Below are positions 7,377-46,735 of a stretch of 64,000 nucleotides of DNA, one piece after another. The stretch's first letter is position 1, and every line of letters begins with the position of its first letter. The DNA comes from Planctomycetota bacterium (GTDB taxonomy: Bacteria; Planctomycetota; PLA2; JAEUHO01): contig JASJAY010000003.1 of assembly GCA_030066775.1 (NCBI GenBank), positions 53 to 64,052 on the forward strand, written 5' to 3'. Below the pieces are notes generated by a model. That model was not told the DNA's origin. It did no database searches and saw only the letters and a program-made list of their open reading frames with translations. The translations under genes were made by a program, and so were the position numbers.

Positions 7377-8135
7377 TCATGCCGTCGTCCTGATCGCGCG
7401 CTCCGCGTTGACGGCTTCGGCGAACTGCTCGAACTGGCGCGTGCAGCTCATGTACTCCACCCGGCCCGGCACGTCATGGCCGAAGAGCGAGACCTCCACC
7501 GCGGTGACCAGGCCGCGCAGGGCCTCGCGTGCGTCGTCGGGCAGCTCGACGCGCTCCAGGATCTCGCGGCTGGTCCACGACTTCTGCATGCCCCCGGGCA
7601 TCCGCCCCGCGAGGCGGCCCAGGGTCTCGAGCAGCAGCACGTGGATCGCTTCGTCGAAGCGGCCCGCGTCGGCGAGGCGCTCGGCCTTCGTCTTGGTCCC
7701 GGCGAGCTCGATCGGGGGCCTGGGTGGGGGCGCGCCCGCCTTCGGGCGCTCGAGCTCGACGTCCTTCGTGTACCCGCCGAGCAGCCGGACGAGCCACGTC
7801 AGGACGAGCACGCCACCGACGATCAGGAGCATCCAGATCAGGGCGTTGCCGAGATCGGCGCTGCCGCCGCTGCTGCCGCCTCCGCTGCTGCGGGAGCGCG
7901 AGCGCCGCGACGCGCGCGGGCGACGGGGCGAGCTGTCGGTCGAAGCGCGACGCGCCGTCGGTCGGCTCCGGGTGGGTTCGACGCGGCGGGGCTCGAAGTT
8001 CTGGTAGCGCGTGCGGCCGGGCATCTCGCGCTGGTAGCTCGCGTCTTCGAATACGCGCTTCGCCGCCTTCTGGATGTCCACGGGCGTGGGCACACCCAGA
8101 CAGATCCCCAAGAGCGCGCCGGCGACGATTCCCAC
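7377..8135 (-). CDS. DUF4129-like membrane protein (MoxR cluster component)
   Basis: 252 aa. It has a central TM segment (LIWMLLIVGGVLVLTWLV). The C-terminal TSREILERVELPDDAREALRGLVTAVEVSLFG resembles the DUF4129 helix. An S/R/P-rich low-complexity linker is present. Confidence 0.55.
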   Translation of the reverse strand: MGIVAGALLGICLGVPTPVDIQKAAKRVFEDASYQREMPGRTRYQNFEPRRVEPTRSRPTARRASTDSSPRRPRASRRSRSRSSGGGSSGGSADLGNALIWMLLIVGGVLVLTWLVRLLGGYTKDVELERPKAGAPPPRPPIELAGTKTKAERLADAGRFDEAIHVLLLETLGRLAGRMPGGMQKSWTSREILERVELPDDAREALRGLVTAVEVSLFGHDVPGRVEYMSCTRQFEQFAEAVNAERAIRTTA

Positions 8136-28249: not shown

Positions 28250-29176
28250 TCAGTCCGACAAGAGTCGCACGTTGTCGAGGTGAAACTTGCGCGGTGCGTC
28301 CAAGCCGTTGACGAACCAGATCAGCGTGTACATGCGGCTCAGGTTCAGGCGGCGCTTGGCGGGCGCGGCCTGCACGTCGGCGAGCCGCACACGCACCGTG
28401 TGGCGGCCGGGCGCGTAGGACTCGATCAATCGGAAGCGATCGTTGTAGTCGTAGTGCTTGCGGTCGTGGTGCTGGTCCTCCGCCTCGAAGATGAGGCGCA
28501 GGGGCGCGTCGCCGAGCACGACCAGATCGAAGGCGAGCGCGTCGTAGTCGCTCCAGTCCTCGGGGAAGCTGCCGAGCGTCACGCCCGGATAGGTCCCTGC
28601 GGCCAGCCGCACCTCGAGCGATGCGTTGCCGTGCGTGGCGTGGTCCGGCGAACACGCGTACGTCGATTCGCGGGAGCCCACGCGCGTCAGCTCGAGCCGG
28701 TCCTCGAACGAGGCGAGCAGCGGGAAGCTGCGAGCCTGTCGCACCGCGTCGACCGTCGTGATCGCCGGGTTGAAGAGACCGACGGCGAGCAGCAGCCCGG
28801 TTGCGGTCCAGATCACGCGCCGCGGCCCGGCCCGTTCCGCCACCCGCGCGCGATGCGCCAGGAACCACGCCCCGGTGCCGACGGCGTTCGTCGCCGCATC
28901 CATCCAGGACGGCTCGCGGCCCACGAAGCCCTGCAGCCACTCCATTCCGATGCCGGCGACCGTGGCGCCGGCCAGCGCGAGCCCGTCGCGCAGCCACGAC
29001 GAGCGCATCCCCAGGAGCCCGAGGAACCGGGCGGCGAGGAAGCCGAGCGCGGCACCGATCGCGAGATGGCCGGCGTCGAAGCCCGCCTTCCACACGCGCC
29101 CGCGCAGGGGGATCGGCACGATCAGGAGGAGCAGGACCAGCAAGACGACGAGCGTGGTGGTCCGGGGCTTGTTCAT
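28250..29176 (-). CDS. VanZ-like family membrane protein with C-terminal extracytoplasmic domain
   Basis: The real start is MNKPRTTTLVVLLVLLLLIV at 29176. It has four TM segments, with EWLQGFVGREPSWMDAATNAVG typical of VanZ. The stop abuts the convergent upstream stop (tgatca). Confidence 0.6.
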   Translation of the reverse strand: MNKPRTTTLVVLLVLLLLIVPIPLRGRVWKAGFDAGHLAIGAALGFLAARFLGLLGMRSSWLRDGLALAGATVAGIGMEWLQGFVGREPSWMDAATNAVGTGAWFLAHRARVAERAGPRRVIWTATGLLLAVGLFNPAITTVDAVRQARSFPLLASFEDRLELTRVGSRESTYACSPDHATHGNASLEVRLAAGTYPGVTLGSFPEDWSDYDALAFDLVVLGDAPLRLIFEAEDQHHDRKHYDYNDRFRLIESYAPGRHTVRVRLADVQAAPAKRRLNLSRMYTLIWFVNGLDAPRKFHLDNVRLLSD

Positions 29177-29320
29177 CCGCGCGGAGCATAGCCGCGGTCG
29201 CCTGCATTCCGCGCGCGGGGCGGACGATCGGGACGGACGCTGGAAAGCGCGGGGGCGCGATCGGTAGGATGCGCCCGACGATCGGGCGTGGGGGGTGCGC
29301 GGCGTCGAGGGAGGCAGGGC

Positions 29321-30622
29321 ATGAGGCAGCGGTGGATCTCCGCAATTTGCGTGATGGCACTCGTAGCGGGCTCGATCTGGATCGCGCCGGAGGCCGAGGC
29401 CGGTGGCGTGGGGCTCTTGGAAACCGGCGGCAAGCGCATGGGCAGCGCGTACGCGGGCGGGGCCGCTTCCGCTGACGACGCCACCACCATCTGGTGGAAC
29501 CCCGCCGGCATGGCGCGGCTGCGACGCCACAGCGCCGCGGTGGCAGCGGTCTACATCGCGCCCACCTTCGAGTACACGGACCAGGGCTCGCTCGACGTGG
29601 CTTCGATGCCGATCATCGGCGTCAACGCCGATGGCGCCGAGGATGCCGTGGTCCCGAGCGCCTTCGTCGCCTGGCGGCTGAACCGCAAGTGGAACGTGGG
29701 CCTGAGCGTGAACGTGCCGTTCGGCCTCAGCACGTCGTACCCCGACAACTTCTACGGCCGCTACTACGCGACCGACTCGGAGCTGTTCACGCTGAACATC
29801 AACCCCGCGGTTGCGTACCGCATCAACAACCGGCTCTCCATCGGCGCAGGCTTCAACGCGATGTACGCCGACGCCACCCTGGAGAACCAGGTCGACTTCG
29901 GTGCTTCGGCGATGATGCCCCAGGCGCTGGACGGCAGCGCGAAGATCGAAGGCGACGGTTGGGGCTTCGGCTTCAACGTCGGCCTGCTCTACGAGGTCAA
30001 CTGCTGCACCCGCTTCGGCATCCACTACCGCTCGCGCGTCACGCAGGAGATCGAGGGCGACGGGTCGTTCGTCGTGCCGGGGCCGGTCCAGCCGGGTCTG
30101 CCCCCGGGCCTCTTCACGAACTCGGCCGCCGAGACCGAGATCGACTTCCCCGACTCCCTCTCGGTGAGCGCATACCACCGGGTCAACAACCGCTGGGCCG
30201 TGATGGGGGACGTGACCTGGACGAACTGGGAGACCTTCGACGAGCTGGTCGTGGACTTCGCGAACCCGGTCCAGCCGAACACCGTCCTCGAGTTCGACTG
30301 GAAGGACACGTTCCGTGTCGGCGTGGGCGTGGCCTTCACGCCGAACAGCTGCTGGGAGTTCCGCGCCGGCGTGCTCTTCGACGAAGGCCCGGCCTCGACC
30401 AGCAACAGGACGCCGCGCGTCCCGGACGCGGATCGGCTCTGGGTGACGGCCGGTGTCGGCTATCGCATCAACAACCGCCTCCGGGTCGACCTCAGCTACG
30501 CGCACATCTTCGGGAGCGAGGTCGACGTGCGGCAGACGAGCCCCACGGCGGGCACGCTGCGCGGCACCTACGAGGACTCCGACGCGAACCTCTTCGGCCT
30601 GCAGGTGACCGTCGACTTCTGA
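29321..30622 (+). CDS. fadL: FadL/OmpP1/TodX family outer-membrane hydrophobic-compound transporter
   Basis: The signal peptide is MRQRWISAICVMALVAGSIWIAPEAEA. An alternative start lies at 29288. The beta-barrel pattern and a C-terminal aromatic residue (VTVDF) fit the FadL family. Confidence 0.75.
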   Translation: MRQRWISAICVMALVAGSIWIAPEAEAGGVGLLETGGKRMGSAYAGGAASADDATTIWWNPAGMARLRRHSAAVAAVYIAPTFEYTDQGSLDVASMPIIGVNADGAEDAVVPSAFVAWRLNRKWNVGLSVNVPFGLSTSYPDNFYGRYYATDSELFTLNINPAVAYRINNRLSIGAGFNAMYADATLENQVDFGASAMMPQALDGSAKIEGDGWGFGFNVGLLYEVNCCTRFGIHYRSRVTQEIEGDGSFVVPGPVQPGLPPGLFTNSAAETEIDFPDSLSVSAYHRVNNRWAVMGDVTWTNWETFDELVVDFANPVQPNTVLEFDWKDTFRVGVGVAFTPNSCWEFRAGVLFDEGPASTSNRTPRVPDADRLWVTAGVGYRINNRLRVDLSYAHIFGSEVDVRQTSPTAGTLRGTYEDSDANLFGLQVTVDF

Positions 30623-30728
30623 TCCCGATTCCGCGCCTCCGGCGACCTGAAGCGTCTCGGAACGAGACGATCTGAAGGCCCTGTGAAGGCCCTCCGCGGG
30701 GCCATGGGGGGGACCTCCCCATGGGCCG

Positions 30729-33194
<2,466 letters not shown>

Positions 33195-33292
33195 GCCGCG
33201 GGCGACCGCCACGCCGGGGCGAATCGCTTTCGGCGCCGGGCCCTCCGATCGGCCTTGCGGCCGATCCGACACCGGGCTCCAATGCACCTGTC

Positions 33293-36200
33293 GTGGCACG
33301 CATCCCGTGCGTTTCCTGTGGGCAGAGGACCGACGTTCCGCGCCGGCCCGCCGACACCCGCTGTCCGAGCTGCGGCGCCTGGCTCAACGTGCTCCCGTGG
33401 CGTGAGCTGTGGGCCGCGCAGGATCTCCGCGACCGCATTCGTGCGGATCGCGAGCTCCCCGACGACTTCCGCGAGCAGCTCGAGCGGCTGCTCGAGGGCC
33501 GCATCCGGAGGATGCGCGAGGACCTCGCGACCGCCGAGGCGCTCGCGCGCGCGGCGCGCCCCGAGCCGCCGCCCGCCGCAGCGGTCCCGCCACCGCCCAC
33601 GCCGGCGTCGCTGCCCCCGCCGCTCGAGCCGACGGCACCGATCGAGCCGGTGCCGCTCGAGGCACCCGAGCCGCACGATGCGCCCACGCCCGCCCCGACC
33701 CCGGCGCGGCCGCGTGCGCCCACGGTCTGGCAGCGGTTGGGGCCGGCGTTCGCCGAGAACCTCGGGTTCGGGCTGGCGGCCTTCCTGATCGTGGCGGGGG
33801 CCGTCTACTTCACGACCACGGCGTGGACGACGATGTCGGGCGCGCAGCGCTTGATGGTCGTCGCCGGCGGCCTCGTACTCCTGGGCGGGGTGCTGTTCGC
33901 GGCGGCGCGCTTGCTCAACCGCGCCGGCAACCTGCCCGAGGTCGAGCGCACGCTGCTGCTGATCGTCGCGTTCCTCATCCCGATCGCCGCCATCCCCGCC
34001 GGCACGCTGTTCCCGCTCTCGACCTGGCGCGCCCTGCTCGCGACCGGCATCGTCTTCGGCGGCGGGTGGTTCGCGGCCCGGCACCTGGCCCGCGTACTCG
34101 GCGATGCGCACGCCACGTTCCTGCCCTCGGCCCTCATCGCGCTCTCGGCGCTCTCGCTCCTCGGCGGCGCCATGCCGCCCGCCGCGCCCGTCGTCTCGGC
34201 GCTGATCATCGCGCTGTTCTTGATCGGCGTGACGTGGCTCTATGCGCGACGCGTCGTGCCCCGGCTCGAGTCCAAGGACTGGCGCGCGCTGTGGCCCACG
34301 ATCCTCTTCGCGTTCGCCGCGGTCGTCGCCGTCGGTCGGCTCGCGATCGCCGGCCGCGCCACGTGGTCGATGGGGACGTCGCTGTCGACGCTGGGCATCG
34401 TCATCGCGGCGCTCGGGGGCGCCGTCGTCACCTGCGAACCCGCGCTGTACGCACGCCGCCTTCTCGGACGCCGGCGCTCCGCGGTCCTGCTCGTCGTGGC
34501 CATGGCCCTCGGCATCACCGGCACGCTCATGGCGCTCGGCGACGACGTCGGGCTCTTGGTCGCGTCGCTGCTCGGTGCGTACGCGTGTCTGCGCGCCGGC
34601 TTCGCGCTGCCGGTTCCGTGGTTCGCCTTGCCTGGCCTCGTCCTGTCGGCGTTGGCCTACCTCAAGTCGCCTGCGCCCATCCGCGCCGCAGCCTTGCAGC
34701 TTCGCGATCAGGCCGCCGACGCCCTCGGCTACGCGGACCGGCCCATGCCGCTCGCCTGGTACGGCATGACCTTCCTGCCGTACGTGTTCCTCTGCGCGTG
34801 CGCGGGATGGATCCTGCTGCGCCGGGACGAGGCGGCGAAGGCGCGCGTGCTGCTCGCGTGGTCGTTCGTCGCGGCCGTGGGGCTCTCGGCCCTCGCCCTG
34901 TTCGCCAGCGGGGATCCCGTCTTCAGCGATCTGCGTGCCCCGGCTGCGGTGTTCGCTGCGCAGGGCGGGCTGCTGTTGGCCATGGGCGTGGCGCTGCGCG
35001 GCCGCTGGTTCACGTTCGGCGGCGCGGCGGGCGTCATCGCGGGACTCGCGTGCGCCGTGCTGCACTACCGGCCCAGCGCGCCGATCGCGGTGCTCGCGCT
35101 CGCTGCGCTGGGCGTGGTCGCGCTCGGCGCCTGCGCCCGCCTCGCCCGTGAGGGGACCGAGGCGCACACCGCCGTGCGGGCCGGCCTCATCGACGCCACC
35201 GCCTTGCTCACGCTCGTGCTCGTCGTCGTCGCGACGGTCGACGCCCTCACGCTGGCACCGGCCCCGGCCTGGCATGCCCTCGGCCACGTTCTCCTGACCG
35301 TGCTCGTTGCGGCCGTCGCCTTCTCCGTGCGTCGCCCGGAAGGCGTCGCGCTCGCCGGCGTCGCCCTCGGCGCAGCCGGCGTGCGTCTCGTCGCGGGCCT
35401 CGCGCCCGACGCCGGTGGCGATGTCTACTTCCTCGTCCTCGCGCTCGTGTCGGGGGCCGTGCTCCTGGCGCCGCGCGTCGAGCGGTTGCTCCCGGAGGCC
35501 TTGCGGCACCCGCTGCCCGCGGCGCCCGCATCGCTCGGTTCGTGGACGCCCTTCGGCGCGATGGCGATCCAGGTGCTGGGACTCATCCTGCTCCTGCGCT
35601 ACCTGCCCGAACCGGGCTGGACGCTGACCCTGGCCATCGGTCTGCTCGTCGCGGCGGGGGTGCTGGCCACGGCCGCGGCCCGCGAGGCGCAGCCGTGGCC
35701 GCTCTACCCCGGCGTGTGCGAGCTCGTCGCTGCGGGCGTCGTCGCCGGAACGGCGCTCACGTCGGGGCGCTGGTACGGGACGGGAGGACTGCTCGGTACT
35801 GCCGGCTCTCTTGCCCTGGTCTGCGCGCCCTTGCTCTTCGACCGCCCCCGAGCGCTCACCGAGCGCCTGCGCGTTCCGCTGCGTCACCTGCTCCCCGTGC
35901 TCGTCACGGGGTTCGCCGTCTGGGCGTTCGGACTCGTCGTGGCGTGGTGGGCCGGGGAGGCGGCGGACCTGGACGGCTGGCGGCTGCTCGTCGCGGCGCT
36001 GGCCGTTGCGCTCGTCGTGCGCGCCACGCTCGTGCGGCACCTGCGCTCGCACGCGGTTCGCGCGGCGACGCTGTACGCGGGCACGCTCTTCGCGCCCGCG
36101 GCGGCCGGGCCGCTCATCGCGCGCCATCCGGTCGCGACGCACACGTGGGCGCTTGCGTGCCTCGCCGCGGCAGCCGTCACATGGGTCTGGGCCGGCCGGG

Positions 36201-38272
36201 ATCGGCGCATCCGGCCGCCGGCGGTGCTGCACCTCGTGCTGGCGCTCGCGTTCGCCACGTGGTCATCGGCCATGGGGACGGGGGATCCCTACGTCCTGCT
36301 CGGCGCCTTCCTGCTCTGCGCCGGCGGTGGCTGGGTCACCGCGCGGCGCGTACCGGTCCTCGGCTGGTGCCTGCTCCTCGTTGCGCTGCTGCTCGGGATC
36401 TCGATGCCGCTTTGCGCGCGCATCCTCCACGTGGAGCTCACGTACCAGCCGGCGGTCTGGCTCCTCTTCGCGGCCGCGGCGTACGCCGCGCTGGCCGTGC
36501 GCGGCCTGGGCGTCGACGCGCGGGCGGTGCGCATCGTCGCGGATCCGATCCTCTCGCTCGGCGTGATCGGCGCGCTCATGCACGCGGTCCACGTGACCGT
36601 GCTCGAGCCGACGACCGCGCGCGTCGGTGAGGGGTTGCCGATCACCGTCGCGGGATTGCGCGTCGCGGAGGGGGCGCTCGGTCTGGCGGCCCTGGCGCGC
36701 AGCCTGACCCTGCCGTTCCCCGCCTTGGGGCGGCGCACGCTGGCGCTCTTCATCATCGGCATCGTCACCTTCGCGTTCGCGCCGGTGAACATGGCGATCC
36801 ACGGCAGCGATGCCTGGTTCTGGCGGCCGGATGTCGAGCTGGCGCTCATCGCCGTCCTCCTCGCCGCCATCATGCGGCGCGCGGAGCACCCGCGCTTCGA
36901 GGATGGGTCCGGTCGGCTCGGGCAGCGAACGCAGTGGCCGATCCTCTTGGCGCTCGTCGGTGTCGGCCTCACCGTGGCCGAGCTACGCGACCTCAGCACG
37001 CCGCTCACGGTGCTCGGCTTCACCGCCGCGCTCACGATCCTCGTCGTGCGCGATCGCGGGCCGCGTCTCGGGACGCTGGCGGCTGCCGGCACGTTGGCGA
37101 CGGCGTTGGCCTTCGCGTCCTGGTGGCGGCCCATGCCCGGCACGATCCACGAGGGCATTCTGCTCCTCTACGCCGCCGTGTGTGCGCTGGTCGCGCCCCT
37201 GCTCGGGCTGACCGCCCGGCGTCTCACGACCGAGGGCAATCCGCCCTGGCGGGTCCGCACCGGTCGCGAGGTCTACCCCGTGGCGGTCCTCGCCGCGTGC
37301 TTGACCTTCGCATTCGTGATCGCCGACGTCGGGGCCAACGCGGGGCGGCAGGCGTCGGCGCTCGAGGTCGCCCTCGCCGTCATCGGCCTCCTTGCCCCTG
37401 GCCTCGCCGCGGCCTGGGGCGCGCTGCGTGCAAGTCGCCCGCGACTCGTGCACGTCGCGCTGGGCGCGGGCCTCCTCCTCTACACGTTCTTGGTGCAGCG
37501 CACGGCCTCCCTCGACCTGTTCGACGGCTATCACCTGCACGTGCTGACCGCGATCGGGTCGTCGCTCCTGTTCGTCGCCGACCGCCGATCGTCCGCCCTC
37601 GCGCGCCTGCTCGCCATCGACGGAACGCTGCTCGCCGTGCCGGCGGCGGCGCGGTATGCCCCCGCAGCCGTCGGGCTCATGCCCCACGTCGACGGCACGG
37701 CGTCCGCGCTCGCGCTGGCCGCCGTGGCGTCGGCCGCTGCCGCGAAGCGGTTGGCGCTGCCGGCGCTCTACGCTGCCGCCGCCGTGCTCGTGAACCTGAT
37801 GCTGTACTCGTTCTGGCGGCAGAACGGGCTCGTCGACCCGGCGTTCTACGGCATCCCGCCCGGCCTCACGCTGCTCGCCGCCGCGATGCTCCTGCGCGGA
37901 CGCATCTCCTCCCCGGCGCGGCTCGCCCTCGTCGTCCCGGGCCTGGCGCTGCTCTACGGGTCGGTCGCCATCCAGGTCGTGCGCGCGGACGAGCCGGTGC
38001 ACGCGCTGCTGCTCTTCGGCCTCGGGTTCCTCACCGTCGTGCTCGGCTTCTGGGCCCGGCGCAACGCGTGGATGGTGGTCGGCGTCGTCGTCATCGTGCT
38101 CGACGTCGTGACCTATCTCCTCGTACACGGCTTCGAGACGGGGTTCTTCGGGGCGGCGCTCCTCATCGTCGCGGGCCTGGTCGTGATGGCGGTCGCGGCG
38201 ATCACCACCACGCGGCGTCGCCGACAGGCGGCCGCCGATGCCGACGATGCCGAGGGGGCGCGGGATGCTTGA
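33293..38272 (+). CDS. Giant (1659 aa) polytopic membrane protein with N-terminal zinc-ribbon
   Basis: One uninterrupted frame has a GTG start. The N-terminus reads CVSCGQ...CPSCGAW. A Pro-rich linker follows, then more than 40 predicted TM helices with Ala/Leu/Gly-rich composition and no recognisable catalytic motif. The stop overlaps the start of the next gene (ATGCTTGA). Confidence 0.6.
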   Translation: MARIPCVSCGQRTDVPRRPADTRCPSCGAWLNVLPWRELWAAQDLRDRIRADRELPDDFREQLERLLEGRIRRMREDLATAEALARAARPEPPPAAAVPPPPTPASLPPPLEPTAPIEPVPLEAPEPHDAPTPAPTPARPRAPTVWQRLGPAFAENLGFGLAAFLIVAGAVYFTTTAWTTMSGAQRLMVVAGGLVLLGGVLFAAARLLNRAGNLPEVERTLLLIVAFLIPIAAIPAGTLFPLSTWRALLATGIVFGGGWFAARHLARVLGDAHATFLPSALIALSALSLLGGAMPPAAPVVSALIIALFLIGVTWLYARRVVPRLESKDWRALWPTILFAFAAVVAVGRLAIAGRATWSMGTSLSTLGIVIAALGGAVVTCEPALYARRLLGRRRSAVLLVVAMALGITGTLMALGDDVGLLVASLLGAYACLRAGFALPVPWFALPGLVLSALAYLKSPAPIRAAALQLRDQAADALGYADRPMPLAWYGMTFLPYVFLCACAGWILLRRDEAAKARVLLAWSFVAAVGLSALALFASGDPVFSDLRAPAAVFAAQGGLLLAMGVALRGRWFTFGGAAGVIAGLACAVLHYRPSAPIAVLALAALGVVALGACARLAREGTEAHTAVRAGLIDATALLTLVLVVVATVDALTLAPAPAWHALGHVLLTVLVAAVAFSVRRPEGVALAGVALGAAGVRLVAGLAPDAGGDVYFLVLALVSGAVLLAPRVERLLPEALRHPLPAAPASLGSWTPFGAMAIQVLGLILLLRYLPEPGWTLTLAIGLLVAAGVLATAAAREAQPWPLYPGVCELVAAGVVAGTALTSGRWYGTGGLLGTAGSLALVCAPLLFDRPRALTERLRVPLRHLLPVLVTGFAVWAFGLVVAWWAGEAADLDGWRLLVAALAVALVVRATLVRHLRSHAVRAATLYAGTLFAPAAAGPLIARHPVATHTWALACLAAAAVTWVWAGRDRRIRPPAVLHLVLALAFATWSSAMGTGDPYVLLGAFLLCAGGGWVTARRVPVLGWCLLLVALLLGISMPLCARILHVELTYQPAVWLLFAAAAYAALAVRGLGVDARAVRIVADPILSLGVIGALMHAVHVTVLEPTTARVGEGLPITVAGLRVAEGALGLAALARSLTLPFPALGRRTLALFIIGIVTFAFAPVNMAIHGSDAWFWRPDVELALIAVLLAAIMRRAEHPRFEDGSGRLGQRTQWPILLALVGVGLTVAELRDLSTPLTVLGFTAALTILVVRDRGPRLGTLAAAGTLATALAFASWWRPMPGTIHEGILLLYAAVCALVAPLLGLTARRLTTEGNPPWRVRTGREVYPVAVLAACLTFAFVIADVGANAGRQASALEVALAVIGLLAPGLAAAWGALRASRPRLVHVALGAGLLLYTFLVQRTASLDLFDGYHLHVLTAIGSSLLFVADRRSSALARLLAIDGTLLAVPAAARYAPAAVGLMPHVDGTASALALAAVASAAAAKRLALPALYAAAAVLVNLMLYSFWRQNGLVDPAFYGIPPGLTLLAAAMLLRGRISSPARLALVVPGLALLYGSVAIQVVRADEPVHALLLFGLGFLTVVLGFWARRNAWMVVGVVVIVLDVVTYLLVHGFETGFFGAALLIVAGLVVMAVAAITTTRRRRQAAADADDAEGARDA

Positions 38273-38975
38273 GCTCCGGTGCCCGGCCTGCGAGTGCGCC
38301 AACGGCGTGACGGGTGAGGTCGACCTCGATGCCATCCGCTGCGCCGCCTGTTCCGCGGCGCTCGATCCGGACCGGTTCGTGCGCTATCGCGTAGACGGCG
38401 AGGGGCGCGCGTGGGGCAACCTGCTTCACCGCGGCCTCGTGATGCGCGCGACCCGTGGAACCCTGGATCGTGACATGCGCATCTCGGAGGAGGGCGGTCC
38501 CTGGTTCCGTGCCGGGGAGCGCCTCGACCTCTTCGCGCGCGCGCCGGGCCCCGTCACGGTGACGCCGTCGCCGCGTCCCCGAAGAGTGCGGCAACGGCAG
38601 ACGGTCCCTCCGTCGGTCGTCACGATGGCCGCGCTCGGCAAGCTGCTCGGCGTCGCACTGTTGCTTCTCGCGATGGCTGCGTTCGGCGTGAGCGCCTCGT
38701 TCGACGCCGGCGGATTGGCCGTCGGCACGTTCGTGCTCTTCGTCGGCCTGGGCGTGGGGCAGATCGCCGTGGCGAACCGTCTGCTGCAGCGCAGCGCCAC
38801 GGCGCGCAACCTGCAGCTCCTGGCCGCGACCTTCGCGGCCGTCGGCTACCTGCTCGTCGTCGCCGACGGGGCCGACGGTTTCTTCGTGCTTCTTGGCGGG
38901 GGCTTCGTCGCGATTCCGTTCCTGCTCCTCTTGCCGCAGGAGGTCCGCGCCTGGTTCGCAGGCGACGACGCCTAG
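38265..38975 (+). CDS. Small zinc-ribbon membrane protein, partner of the giant membrane protein
   Basis: It starts at MLELRCPACECANG...CAACSA, a zinc ribbon, and has 3-4 C-terminal TM helices. It is translationally coupled to the upstream gene. Confidence 0.5.
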   Translation: MLELRCPACECANGVTGEVDLDAIRCAACSAALDPDRFVRYRVDGEGRAWGNLLHRGLVMRATRGTLDRDMRISEEGGPWFRAGERLDLFARAPGPVTVTPSPRPRRVRQRQTVPPSVVTMAALGKLLGVALLLLAMAAFGVSASFDAGGLAVGTFVLFVGLGVGQIAVANRLLQRSATARNLQLLAATFAAVGYLLVVADGADGFFVLLGGGFVAIPFLLLLPQEVRAWFAGDDA

Positions 38976-41037: not shown

Positions 41038-42369
41038 CTAGACCGGGGTCGGCTCGAACACGGTCTGGGCATCGATCGAGGTCGTGAGGGCGTCCAGCGC
41101 CCGCTCGACCAGCCGCCGCCGCAGCGCCCGCTCGTCGTCCGCGGACAGCGACGGGTCGCCCAGGGGGTGCGGGATCGCGATCGACGGCACGATGCGGTTG
41201 GCACCGACTGTCTTCGAGATCGGGACGATCGAACAGACGTGAACGGTGGGGATGCCCGCCCGCTCGATCTCCTTGACCAGCGTTGCACCGCAACGCGTGC
41301 ACGTGCCTCAGGTCGACGTCAGGATCACCGCCTGGACCTGGGCCTCCTTCAGCTGCGCCGCGATCTCGGCGCCGAACTTGCGTGCGCGCTCGACCGACGT
41401 CGCGTTGCCGACCGTTGCGTAGTACGTCTCGTGCAGGTCGCCGATGCGGCCCTCGGCCACGAGCTCGCGGACGACGTCCAGCGGCAGCACGCGGTTCGGG
41501 TCCTCGAAGGCGTAGGTCGGGTCGTAGCCGCCGTGCACCGTCGTGTGCGTCTGGCTCGACAGGCGCTCGAGCCCGGTGATGTCGTAGGCGCCGAAGCGGC
41601 TGGCATCCGCCGACTCGATCCGGTCCGGGTTGCCGCGCGGCACGATGCCGCCGCTCGTGACGAACGCCACGCGGCACGACGAGAGGTCGGGCGCGGCCGG
41701 TGCCGGCGGAACGCGCTCGAAGAGGGGCATCTCGTATTCGGTCTCGAACGGCTCGCCGGCCAGCTTCTTCATCAGCATGGCCACCGCGCGCACGGCGCCG
41801 GTCTCCCCGGCGAACTCGTTCTGGCGGATCCCGCGGGTGAGCGTTCCATCGGCGCTGGGCACCAGCGGCTCGCCGGCGGCCAGCTTCTTGCCGACCCGCG
41901 CCAGACCCTCCATGGCGGCGGGCATGCCGAGCACGTCCCGACCGGCCTCGACGATCGGGACCGTCCGCCGGAATGCGTCGGCGCCGGGGTTCTCGGGATG
42001 GAGGGCGGTCACGGCAGGGAGCCCGATGCGCTCGGCCACGGCGGCGCACACCGATCCGCAGGCCAGGCCGTAGCGGCCGGCGAAGAAGGCCGGACCCGCG
42101 ACGAGCAGCGCGGGCGGTTCGTCGCCGGCGTCGATCACGCCCCGAACGAGGTCCACCACGGCGCCGACGGCCGCATCGCCGCCGTCCATCATGTGGTCGT
42201 CGCCTGCGATGATCGTCGCCACGATCTCGAGGTCCGGGTCCAGCTGCATCAGGAGGAGCCCGGGCCCCTTCGCCCCGTCGATGACGGACGGCGCGACGCC
42301 GGCCTGATCTTCTCCGCCCAGCCCACCGAAGAACTGGTTCAGGTAGTGGATGACGCGCACACGGCCCAT
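41038..42369 (-). CDS. grdB: Glycine/sarcosine/betaine reductase selenoprotein B (GrdB family) with in-frame UGA at 41308-41310 (minus strand)
   Basis: The track ORF 41308..42369 begins MGRVRVIHYLNQFFGGLGGEDQAG, the GrdB/PrdB N-terminal signature, and ends ...QAVILTST at a TGA. I translated in frame beyond the TGA and got GTCTRCGATLVKEIERAGIPTVHVCSIVPISKTVGANRIVPSIAIPHPLGD...TVFEPTPV, ending at the stop at 41038-41040. The total of about 443 aa matches GrdB size, with Sec near residue 354. Confidence 0.8.
41280..41307 (-). ncRNA. Candidate SECIS stem-loop for grdB
   Basis: On the mRNA the sequence is UGA + 11 nt (GGCACGUGCAC) + perfect 7-bp stem GCGUUGC-GGU-GCAACGC, the complement of plus 41280-41296. 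This is canonical bacterial SECIS spacing. Confidence 0.5.
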
Positions 42370-44926: not shown

Positions 44927-45499
44927 ATGACCGTAGCCGTCCTCGCGTCCCTCGGGCTGATCCTGGGGATCGTCGGCGTGATCGTGGTCGTGGTCCTGTA
45001 TTTCATCGGGATCTACAACGGCCTGGTCAGGGCCCGCAACGAGACGAAGAACGCCTGGTCGCAGATCGACGTCCAGCTGAAGCGTCGCCACGACCTCATT
45101 CCCAACCTGGTCGAGACCGTCAAGGGCTACGCCAAGCACGAGGCCGAGACGCTCGAGGCGGTGATCTCGGCGCGCAACGCGGCGGTCAGCGCCGAAGGCC
45201 CGAAGGCGGCCGGCGCGGCCGAGGGCATGCTGAGCGCCGCGCTCGGCAAGCTCTTCGCGCTCTCCGAGGCGTATCCGGACCTCAAGGCCAACACCAACTT
45301 CCTCGCGCTGCAGGAAGAGCTGACGTCGACCGAGAACAAGATCGGGTTCGCGCGGCAGGCGTACAACGACGCCGCCACGACCTACAACAACAAGCGCGAG
45401 GTCTTCCCCGCGAACCTCATCAGCGGCGGCTTCGAGGAAGCCGAGCTGTTCGAGATCGAGGCGCCCGCCGAGCGCGAGGTTCCGAAGGTCGAGTTCTAG
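44927..45499 (+). CDS. lemA: LemA family protein
   Basis: 190 aa with an N-terminal TM helix. WSQIDVQLKRRHDLIPNLVETVKGYAKHEAETLEAV..AR and QEEL..TENKI..AR..YN.A...YN are LemA signatures. An SD aggag lies 6 nt upstream. Confidence 0.8.
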   Translation: MTVAVLASLGLILGIVGVIVVVVLYFIGIYNGLVRARNETKNAWSQIDVQLKRRHDLIPNLVETVKGYAKHEAETLEAVISARNAAVSAEGPKAAGAAEGMLSAALGKLFALSEAYPDLKANTNFLALQEELTSTENKIGFARQAYNDAATTYNNKREVFPANLISGGFEEAELFEIEAPAEREVPKVEF

Positions 45500-45517
45500 C
45501 GCCAGGAGCACGTTCCC

Positions 45518-46735
45518 GTGTGGGAGCAGATCCGGTCCAACAAGATCCGCAGCGTGGTCGTGATCACGCTGATGGGCTCGCTGCTCGCCCTGACGGGCAT
45601 CGCGGCAGGCGTCGCCTTCGGCGGCTCCCTGGATGCGGGCTTCGTCGGGGGCGGGATCGGGCTGCTGCTGTGGTTCTTCATGTGGATGGGGACCGTGCAG
45701 AGCGGCGACAAGGTGATGCTGCGCATCGCCGGCGCGCGTGAGATCGAGCGCAAGGACCATCCGCAGCTCTGGAACATCGTCGAGGAGATGACGATCGCGT
45801 CGCGGCTACCGCAGATGCCGCGCGTCTTCATCGTGGACGACCCTTCGCCCAACGCGTTCGCCACCGGACGCGATCCGAAGTGGGCCGGCGTCAGCGTCAC
45901 GACCGGGCTCCTGCGCATCCTCGACCGCGACGAGCTGCAGGGTGTCGTCGCGCACGAGATCGGGCACATCAAGAACCGCGACGTGGCGCTCATGACGACC
46001 GCGGGCGTGATGATGGGCTGCATCGTGATCCTGGCGGAGCGTGCGCTCCGCCTGCTCTGGTACACGGGCGGTACACGGCGCTCGCGTACGTCGGGGAGCG
46101 ACAGCAAGGGCGGCGCCGAGGCCGTGGCGATGGTGATCGCCTTGATCCTGCTGGTCCTCGCGCCGCTCCTGGCCCAGCTGATCTACTTCGCGCTGTCGCG
46201 CAAGCGCGAGTACCTGGCCGACGCCTCCGGCGCGATGTTCACGCGCTACCCGGAGGGCCTGGCGCGCGCGCTCGAGAAGCTCGGGGGCTCGCGCGTGGCG
46301 CTTGCCGACGAGAGCCGCGTGACCGCGCCGATGTACATCGTGCGGCCGAAGGCGCGCTCGGCGTCCGGGGGCAGCAAGGCGTCGCTGTTCGCCACGCACC
46401 CTCCGATCCAGGAGCGCGTGCGCATCCTGCGTGAGATGGGCGGCGGTGCGGGCCTCGCGGCCTACGAGACCGCGTACGCCAAGGTGCACGGCGGCTCGGT
46501 CGTGGGCGCGCGCTCGCTGGCCGGCGCGGAGGCGCTGACCGTGCGCGAGGCGTCGGCCGCGGTCGACACGACCAGCGAGCGGGCGCGCGCGCGAACGGCG
46601 TCCAACGCGTTCATCTCCGCATCGGGCTACGTGCGCAAGGAGTGCGGCGCGTGCGGCGCCGTCTTGAAGATCCCGCCGAGCGTCGCCGACCGCATGACCA
46701 AGTGCCTGCGCTGCGACACGCCCCTGCCGTCGTGA
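45518..46735 (+). CDS. htpX: M48 family zinc metalloprotease (HtpX-like) with C-terminal zinc-ribbon
   Basis: It carries HEIGHIKNRD (HExxH) and EYLAD. TM helices sit at the N-terminus and after the HExxH motif. The C-terminus reads CGACGAV...CLRCDTPL. The gene lies downstream of lemA, which is a common pair. Confidence 0.8.
   Translation: MWEQIRSNKIRSVVVITLMGSLLALTGIAAGVAFGGSLDAGFVGGGIGLLLWFFMWMGTVQSGDKVMLRIAGAREIERKDHPQLWNIVEEMTIASRLPQMPRVFIVDDPSPNAFATGRDPKWAGVSVTTGLLRILDRDELQGVVAHEIGHIKNRDVALMTTAGVMMGCIVILAERALRLLWYTGGTRRSRTSGSDSKGGAEAVAMVIALILLVLAPLLAQLIYFALSRKREYLADASGAMFTRYPEGLARALEKLGGSRVALADESRVTAPMYIVRPKARSASGGSKASLFATHPPIQERVRILREMGGGAGLAAYETAYAKVHGGSVVGARSLAGAEALTVREASAAVDTTSERARARTASNAFISASGYVRKECGACGAVLKIPPSVADRMTKCLRCDTPLPS

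Follow-up and report, generated by a model that had tools for sequence, protein, structure and literature searches.

The locus considered here raises the question of what is encoded by a single reading frame for 1659 amino acids, overlapped at its 3' end by a much smaller frame, in the 64,000-nucleotide stretch of contig JASJAY010000003.1 from a Planctomycetota bacterium (the window), and of what role the two products could have. The giant gene (33293..38272, forward strand, as are all features of the pair given below) starts with GTG and stops with TGA at 38270-38272, and is identified from the listing of open reading frames (ORFs), codon-position G+C, dN/dS and its homologues; the small partner gene (38265..38975) encodes 236 amino acids and has its stop codon at 38973-38975. 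The start of the partner is superimposed on the stop of the giant gene in the octamer ATGCTTGA (38265..38272), an 8-nucleotide overlap as given in the preliminary description of this DNA, and the identical octamer is present in the related contigs L019 and L020. From sequence comparison, the two products are a conserved pair of inner-membrane proteins with similar cytoplasmic zinc ribbons, encoded by a genuine two-gene unit, and the giant protein belongs to an uncurated and uncharacterized family of the Planctomycetota and Myxococcota.

Since the window is approximately 70% G+C, long ORFs need backing beyond length alone, and a 1013-residue ORF on the opposite strand is an example of a long, high-GC shadow ORF. 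Codon-position G+C marks the giant and partner frames as coding and not as opposite-strand shadow ORFs, with a third-position G+C (GC3) of 0.92 for the giant frame and 0.88 for the partner frame and a second-position G+C (GC2) of approximately 0.54 in both. In a codon-level comparison of the window giant with the related contigs L002, L003 and L020 (66-69% identity), zero stops were found in the giant frame over 770-1434 aligned codons, and dN/dS was 0.13-0.47 in each 200-residue window, the weakly conserved centre included; among the homologues of the giant, the frame is open across 1279-1441 aligned residues. These values point to a gene under purifying selection along its full length. An artefact, whether a pseudogene, an ORF open by chance at 70% G+C, or several genes joined through misassembly, could draw on the long shadow ORF and on a frameshift seen in one relative, but it is hardly credible in view of the GC3 and dN/dS values and of the full-length homologues of 1300-1900 residues on many contigs from many samples. 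The frameshift is found in L001 (the same as L011), a 65% identical relative, in which at 7619-8000 the ribbon and following helix are out of frame with the remainder and the shift falls inside the Pro-rich linker. Because the reading frame runs unbroken through the linker in L002 and L003, we read the shift as a contig error or lesion local to L001 and not as a property of the family. A broken frame had been named beforehand as the observation that would speak against the gene; the frame is unbroken in the window, and the frameshift is confined to the L001 contig.

In the deposited annotation of the same protein (P0001, 1627 residues) the start is placed at V33 (GTG 33389), which leaves out the zinc ribbon, and we prefer GTG 33293 because the ribbon is conserved in frame among the relatives. 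The N-termini of the homologues P0002, P0006, P0008 and P0017 also look truncated by gene calling. The AT skew is -0.45 and -0.35 over the giant gene (34001-38000), compared with approximately 0 elsewhere in the window, and is attributed to the many Leu, Val and Phe codons, with T in second position, of a nearly all-transmembrane protein.

The N-terminus of the giant protein reads VARIPCVSCGQRTDVPRRPADTRCPSCG and contains the four cysteines C6, C9, C24 and C27 (CxxC-x14-CxxC) of a zinc ribbon spanning aa 4-32 (33302..33388), predicted to be cytoplasmic. Beyond the ribbon the protein consists of a charged stretch, then a Pro/Ala-rich stretch, and is thereafter hydrophobic to the C-terminus. The conserved stretch directly after the ribbon, at approximately aa 36-85 (33398..33547), is seen in the alignment with a consensus of LP..LR..L and has an equivalent segment in the Myxococcus xanthus relative P0037; our reading of it is a helix. 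It is followed by a low-complexity Pro/Ala-rich linker at approximately aa 86-142 (33548..33718), which differs in length and sequence among relatives, and then by a conserved N-terminal membrane block (N-block) at aa 143-620 (33719..35152) of about 16 transmembrane (TM) helices, delimited by conservation, AlphaFold modelling and profile search. A central run of TM hairpins (aa 621-1480, 35153..37732) is poorly conserved and variable in length, with purifying selection persisting through it, and the protein ends in a conserved block of six TM helices (C-block; aa 1481-1640, 37733..38212), the signature of which also occurs in P0037 and in the consensus of distant relatives. By composition the protein is 19.7% Ala, 16.9% Leu and 9.8% Val, and it contains 0.2% Lys. 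Hydropathy segmentation gives 46 hydrophobic segments, so the anatomy first proposed, of a ribbon, a Pro-rich linker and more than 40 hydrophobic helices, is borne out. Loops rich in K/R (Arg-rich ones) alternate with loops that are nearly free of Arg, an alternation that fits the positive-inside rule with both termini inside. The hydrophobic-poor gaps are all shorter than 100 residues, the longest being the 93 residues of aa 1398-1490, and apart from that stretch and the N-terminal arm the loops are of approximately 50 residues or fewer.

Of the 19 aligned sequences, counting that of the window, 12 keep all four ribbon cysteines, and the ribbon gives weak matches to several zinc-ribbon Pfam models. 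The partner protein carries a ribbon of the same kind, described below, and in both proteins there are two CxxC pairs 10-20 residues apart that are conserved among homologues, which identifies both as likely zinc ribbons for which zinc binding is predicted; aligned with each other by hhalign, the two ribbons gave a probability of 94.8%.

The family to which the giant protein belongs was traced by sequence and profile searches. A word-indexed search found 19 homologues, all of 1300-1900 residues, unnamed, without Pfam domains, and one per contig, while among species-representative genomes 17 loci were detected, every one in a metagenome-assembled genome, of which 11 are from Planctomycetota, four from Myxococcota (Myxococcales, Nannocystaceae and Bradymonadia), and two or three are unclassified. 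Scoring 1.84 billion cluster representatives (50%-identity clusters) with a profile built on aa 135-620 gave 237 proteins at E<=1e-3, of which 120 reached E<=1e-10, with lengths mostly of 1200-2900 residues, and a profile search also reached the cultured organisms Myxococcus xanthus (1848 residues), Pyxidicoccus, Archangium and Singulisphaera. Members were defined by a full-length match to the N-block together with the C-terminal DPxFYGxPxG block, both of which the window protein, the seed, possesses; the C-terminal signature is common to the alignment, to P0037 and to the distant-relative consensus. In the M. xanthus protein P0037 (BHS04_32405, 1848 residues; record CP017169.1, within 8,091,542-8,113,088), the N-block aligns with that of the window giant at an hhalign probability of 99.4% over approximately 400 columns, and the layout is the same, running from a zinc ribbon and a helix through an acidic/Pro-rich linker to some 40 TM helices and, at the C-terminus, a QFYVIPAGLSLL block. 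That block has the form xYxIPxGLSLL in P0037 and the related form FLIPVGLSAIL in P0036. Also alike in layout, with a zinc ribbon or TPR arm, are Pyxidicoccus JY651_49240 (1988 residues) and a protein of Singulisphaera sp. GP187 (1844 residues), the latter carrying the name 'tetratricopeptide repeat protein'. The Myxococcaceae and Isosphaeraceae giants differ from the window giant in having only approximately 21-25% identity to it and no adjoining small partner, and are annotated as hypothetical throughout. We found no literature study, curated model or structure of the giant's family. These proteins are already in public databases as 'hypothetical', and what is described here is an uncharacterized family with no demonstrated new mechanism or system.

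The most conserved residues of the giant protein are not spread evenly. The N-block contains the motifs AFAENL, TTAWTTM, YLxxPAPxR...LGY...PLAWYGxTFLPY and DLRAPA, with invariant residues E155, T176/W178/T180, Y456, P460, G479/Y480, P486, Y490, P496, D546 and R548. In the central run, which is rich in indels, there are conserved islands at RPDxE (approximately 1179-1182) and GYHLH (approximately 1411-1415), and in the C-block the conserved residues are N1501, D1515-P-x-F-Y-G-x-P-x-G, R1535, Q1561, H1570 and D1604. On the topology from hydropathy and the positive-inside rule, cross-checked with model helices for aa 135-620 only, the motifs TTAWTTM, YLxxPAPxR...LGY...PLAWYG, DLRAPA and DPxFYGxPxG would lie in periplasmic turns or loops, and E155 would lie at the cytoplasmic start of TM1. 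The conserved residues thus appear to cluster at the predicted periplasmic face and in the C-terminal 6-TM block.

An AlphaFold2 model of aa 135-620, built from a 19-sequence alignment, is confident, with a mean predicted local distance difference test (pLDDT) of 84.5, a predicted TM-score (pTM) of 0.80, and 18 helices, in agreement with the hydropathy count of 16 segments for these residues. A Foldseek comparison of predicted models had been proposed as a check, and neither this model nor that of the partner has a match to the Protein Data Bank (PDB) at E<=1e-3. The best neighbours of the aa 135-620 model are designed circular tandem-repeat proteins and TPR solenoids, with TM-scores no higher than 0.34, and no membrane-protein fold is near the top of the list. 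These neighbours hint at a hairpin-array architecture without establishing it. In a sequence search of PDB chains, the N-block had no match and the partner gave only zinc-ribbon noise at E>0.1. One proposal that takes the structural neighbours at face value is that the giant protein is purely structural, an in-membrane solenoid that organizes or shapes the cytoplasmic membrane and whose size depends on how long the hairpin run is. It would account for the resemblance to alpha-solenoid and toroid repeat proteins, for the weak conservation and variable length of the central hairpin run, and for the confinement of the family to Planctomycetota and Myxococcota, bacteria with complex envelopes; however, with TM-scores of at most 0.34 the resemblance is only a hint, and no sequence repeats were detected in the giant by hhalign (eight segments of approximately 190 residues compared all-versus-all, every probability <25%), and we regard this purely structural role as rather unlikely.

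With respect to catalysis or transport, the preliminary description had noted no transporter or enzyme motif, and none was found: the giant has no match to a transporter or enzyme family in Pfam and NCBIfam at E<=1, neither protein matches any family there at threshold, and neither matches the PADLOC anti-phage defence models at E<=0.1. No transporter family was matched by the window giant or by the scanned relatives, and these relatives otherwise match only zinc-ribbon families, DUF2157, TPR and single weak one-off families. A new transporter, flippase or channel for lipid, polymer precursor or ions, in which the conserved N- and C-terminal TM blocks would be the core and the centre accessory, is a candidate that we consider unlikely. 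There are two well-conserved TM blocks in a polytopic inner-membrane protein, and conserved polar or charged residues are positioned at TM helices (E155/N156, N1501, R1535, Q1561 and D1604); set against these are the lack of similarity to Pfam/NCBIfam transporter families or, by Foldseek, to a solved membrane fold, the absence of an ATPase, substrate-binding or biosynthetic gene as a conserved neighbour, the absence of the internal two-fold repeat that is a feature of many transporters, and a size range of 1200-2900 residues that is unusual for a fixed transport architecture. A glycosyltransferase, polymerase or ligase of envelope polymers, similar to GT-C or Wzy/O-antigen-ligase enzymes, would also have many TM helices, and the conserved periplasm-facing loops are rich in aromatics, Pro and Asp/Arg, with an NlpC/P60-like gene lying 3' of the M. 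xanthus relative. That identity is quite improbable, given that the window giant has no match at E<=1 to Wzy_C, PMT, GT-C, DUF2339 or related Pfam families, that it has no large periplasmic domain, and that no polysaccharide genes are conserved nearby.

The N-terminal arm of the family is modular. Of 98 near-full-length members, 33 have a CxxC...CxxC ribbon, whereas in P0036 and P0039 the arm consists of TPR repeats, and the N-terminal scans of relatives found a CDKN3-like phosphatase fold in one and nothing recognizable in four; a subgroup of approximately 1200 residues has almost no N-terminal arm. The low-GC distant relatives P0109 and P0125 share a similar N-terminal region of approximately 316 residues in place of the zinc ribbon, which in P0109, the one scanned, matches the CDKN3/dual-specificity-phosphatase family at E 3.3e-5. 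In P0109 the sequence HGQSKENR stands where the catalytic Cys loop of such phosphatases would presumably be expected, and the phosphatase-like domain may be catalytically inactive. The combination of an N-terminal cytoplasmic zinc-binding module, a linker and a membrane region invites comparison with anti-sigma factors, and the giant could be a signalling device whose ribbon holds back a transcription factor or a kinase until the membrane part senses a signal from the envelope; a hybrid histidine kinase gene precedes the window gene, and Ser/Thr kinase genes flank the M. xanthus and L001 loci. However, the ribbon is of the plain CxxC...CxxC type with no HxxxCxxC ZAS motif, no sigma factor adjoins the gene in any examined locus, the neighbouring kinase gene is not conserved, the ribbon is missing from two thirds of the family, and 46 TM helices are far beyond what anchoring needs, all of which make the anti-sigma-like role improbable.

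The small partner protein begins MLELRCPACECANGVTGEVDLDAIRCAAC (MLELRCPAC). There is an alternative in-frame ATG upstream at 38238, and we place the start at 38265 because five of the six homologues begin with MLELRC or MRELLC; the sixth (P0025) has an 8-residue extension before MLELRC. Its zinc ribbon (C6/C9/C26/C29, all four invariant; 38280..38351) is followed by a GYF_2-like domain at approximately aa 38-91 (38376..38537; VRYxV...SEEGGPWFRAxER.DLF), proposed from a homologue match and from conservation, and then, at aa 116-232 (38610..38960), by four TM helices with a short helix after them at the C-terminus, assigned by hydropathy and AlphaFold. The first description of the partner, as a ribbon followed by TM helices, agrees with the four cysteines and the four C-terminal TM helices, and had missed the GYF_2-like domain. 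Partner homologues are rare, with only six among 5.8 billion proteins (compared with approximately 237 clusters for the giant), and common to all are the four invariant cysteines and the block VRYxV...L...SEEGGPWxRAxER.DxF, with an Arg-rich linker as well as four TM helices; weak matches to zinc-ribbon families were obtained in five of seven partner homologues. The partner of L001 has an extra C-terminal region of approximately 190 residues not seen elsewhere. A match to GYF_2 (PF14237) was obtained in one of seven, P0024, at E 7.8e-6. Membrane proteins with GYF_2 resemble the partner in having a zinc ribbon, then a VRYxV...G...L...G.L...ISEEGGPWF.A motif, and then TM helices; they differ in that the canonical G-Y-F signature is not evident in the partner, and the window partner and five of the six other homologues are without a match. 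The 4-TM part of the partner has no family match. Eukaryotic GYF domains bind proline-rich peptides, and we know of no ligand or established function for bacterial GYF_2 domains. The AlphaFold model of the partner has a mean pLDDT of 68.7, with means of 40-68 in 10-residue blocks of the cytoplasmic part (approximately 46-68 in the GYF_2-like region) and 75-88 in the TM helices, and places in order two ribbon hairpins, a strand-helix-strand-strand-helix element, four TM helices (116-146, 149-174, 178-199 and 205-222) and a short C-terminal helix.

The partner gene is directly 3' of the giant gene in five independent assemblies, those of the window, L001/L011, L019, L020 and L021 (L019 and L002 come from one genome bin, the start of the former overlapping the end of the latter). 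The ATGCTTGA overlap is identical in three of the five, and in a fourth (L001) there is also an 8-nucleotide overlap; through such an overlap, the two genes could be translationally coupled. In all five, the giant is at least 65% identical to the window protein. By tblastn with the partner it was not found in other related loci, where the giants are no more than 49% identical (5-kb flanks), it is not beside six more distant relatives, and no partner gene is present on the P0003 contig; where the gene end of distant giants is visible, the ORFs just downstream look unrelated. Because the pairing is restricted to the close clade, the pair is a clade-specific elaboration of a family whose members otherwise stand alone. 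The idea of a dedicated two-component membrane module therefore holds in the five assemblies with close giants and does not extend to the giants of 49% identity or less, and the suggested check of co-occurrence had the same outcome, with the partner accompanying the giant in the close clade and the giant alone in distant relatives.

Upstream of the giant gene, an alignment of the window with L001, L002 and L003 contains two invariant elements, a -35-like hexamer TTGCGG (33255..33260) and a -10-like hexamer in (C)TCCAAT (33278..33283), which in the window are 17 nucleotides apart, while the surrounding intergenic DNA has diverged among the four loci. In all four loci the CTCCAAT element is 7-9 nucleotides 5' of the giant start codon (in L001 the whole element is at 7581-7609). 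Because of this conservation and spacing, we infer that TTGCGG/CTCCAAT is the predicted promoter of the unit itself, with a very short leader or none. A generic scan for sigma-70 promoters and terminators did not call it and found nothing useful.

The genes around the pair were placed correctly in the preliminary description, which had a hybrid histidine kinase upstream and a selenoprotein cluster, in which an in-frame TGA is now located, downstream; neither is conserved. The kinase gene occupies 30729-33194, and downstream there is a gene for a DUF5940 protein and, on the opposite strand, genes for glycine/sarcosine/betaine reductase B components. No window neighbour recurred when searched by tblastn against all related loci, and in the six neighbourhoods inspected (the window and five others) there is no common gene except the partner in the close clade; because none recurs, the kinase and selenoprotein genes are incidental neighbours. 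The reductase B homologue (41308-42369, reverse strand, continuing to approximately 41050) has an in-frame TGA in the context AVILTST*GTCTRCGATL, after which the frame continues for approximately 85 codons, consistent with a selenocysteine codon, and no tRNA genes, tRNA-Sec included, were found in the window. Just upstream of the kinase gene, a 907-residue frame without a Pfam match (28250-30973, reverse strand) overlaps a 444-residue frame with a gene-like GC3 of 0.93 (29288-30622, forward strand), and a few kb downstream a LemA-family gene precedes a gene for an M48 peptidase (44927-46735).

The explanation that we favour, tentatively, is that the giant protein is a membrane-embedded scaffold or a sensor of envelope state, with a modular cytoplasmic N-terminus that recruits partners. 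We prefer a scaffold or sensor over a transporter or enzyme because no family or fold resemblance was found, because there are no conserved metabolic or energizing neighbours, and because the centre is variable in length and the N-terminus is modular; with a family length of 1200-2900 residues and a variable centre, a fixed catalytic or transport architecture is not expected. In such a protein, the conserved periplasm-facing loops would engage some part of the envelope or signal the condition of the bilayer, and the flexible cytoplasmic arm would recruit soluble partners, the arm having been exchanged among relatives for a zinc ribbon, TPR repeats, a phosphatase-like domain, or nothing. In the clade of the window, the small protein, possibly translationally coupled, would join the complex in the membrane, and its GYF-like domain might dock on the Pro-rich linker of the giant so that the partner ribbon sits beside the giant ribbon. 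A bolder version, which we find doubtful at present, is that the family represents a new class of membrane-embedded helical-hairpin solenoid, in which a head of about 16 TM helices and a tail of six are joined by an evolvable hairpin run to form a long scaffold lying in the plane of the cytoplasmic membrane in Planctomycetota and Myxococcota, with exchangeable cytoplasmic adaptors and, in this clade, a partner that clamps the Pro-rich arm.

Several observations weigh against a scaffold or sensor built in this way. The gene neighbours differ at every locus examined, so that operon context gives no functional pointer, and the conserved polar residues in or near TM helices (E155/N156, N1501, Q1561 and D1604) would be just as fitting in a core for transport or catalysis. 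The topology is a prediction from hydropathy and the positive-inside rule. Contact between the GYF-like domain and the linker has no support from co-variation, Pro-rich linkers are also present in relatives without a partner, and the window partner has no Pfam match to GYF_2. The similarity to DUF2157, considered below, never attains the Pfam gathering score in any member tested, and there is no match to DUF2157 at E<=1 in the window giant, nor any match in 10 other relatives scanned in full; moreover, DUF2157 is not known to have an established function.

Should the family prove to have a defined role, this would supply a function for one of the largest polytopic bacterial membrane proteins, with approximately 46 TM helices, and a starting point for understanding DUF2157-like membrane modules and bacterial GYF_2 domains. 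Both phyla in which the family occurs are known for their complex envelopes and large genomes, and the existence of a relative in the genetically tractable M. xanthus makes the question directly testable.

Comparison with known families separates the giant protein from several of them. The DUF2339 and Wzy_C families resemble it only in being long polytopic membrane proteins, and both had to be rejected, these being the multi-TM families named beforehand as ones whose match would refute the first reading: there is no Pfam match to DUF2339 in the window giant (E<=1) or in the scans of relatives, and for the O-antigen ligase/Wzy_C and GT-C families there is no Pfam match and no sizeable periplasmic loop. 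A possible link to SCO7613 was not borne out, as no such match was obtained in NCBIfam. The ZAS anti-sigma factors and the zinc-ribbon-PspC fusions are similar to the giant in tethering a cytoplasmic N-terminal zinc module to a membrane region, but ZAS factors have an HxxxCxxC motif, which is not present in the giant sequence, in place of the CxxC...CxxC ribbon, and have 1-4 TM helices in comparison with 46; no sigma-factor domain was found among the neighbours of the window and of the examined related loci, and no psp genes adjoin them.

The only recurrent family signal is that of DUF2157 (PF09925, 'predicted membrane protein'), which is always below the gathering score of 32.4 bits. Sub-threshold matches were obtained in five of six distant relatives (best 28.5 bits, E 1.4e-6), in seven of 38 further relatives (E<=0.01), and in one of the 19 aligned sequences. 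The earlier statement that the pair belongs to no described family thus stands insofar as no match reaches threshold, and is qualified by this recurrent sub-threshold signal in distant relatives and by the GYF_2-like domain of the partner. The DUF2157 matches span model positions of approximately 31-141 and lie on the first TM helices of the relatives, just before or overlapping the region aligned to aa 156-265 of the window protein. In some relatives a segment just before TM1 (for example, the P0077 N-terminus) may resemble the soluble helix at the start of the DUF2157 model. The match covers approximately 100 of 1659 residues, leaving about 40 other TM helices and the C-block without a counterpart. 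DUF2157 has been equated with LiaF's N-terminal TM helices, and these together with the four TM helices of LiaI have been merged as a sensory domain, 'LiaI-LiaF-TM', of envelope-stress systems, in an analysis that also noted fusions of zinc ribbons to PspC (PMC11237479). No Toastrack, PspA/LiaH, PspC or LiaRS was found in the window neighbourhood or the five related neighbourhoods. Because the similarity is sub-threshold and the envelope-stress companions were not found nearby, we do not take DUF2157 as a family assignment and treat it as the closest named relative of a small part of the giant. The giant family is best described as a hugely expanded membrane module that, in the first helices of its distant relatives, is DUF2157-like at a sub-threshold level.

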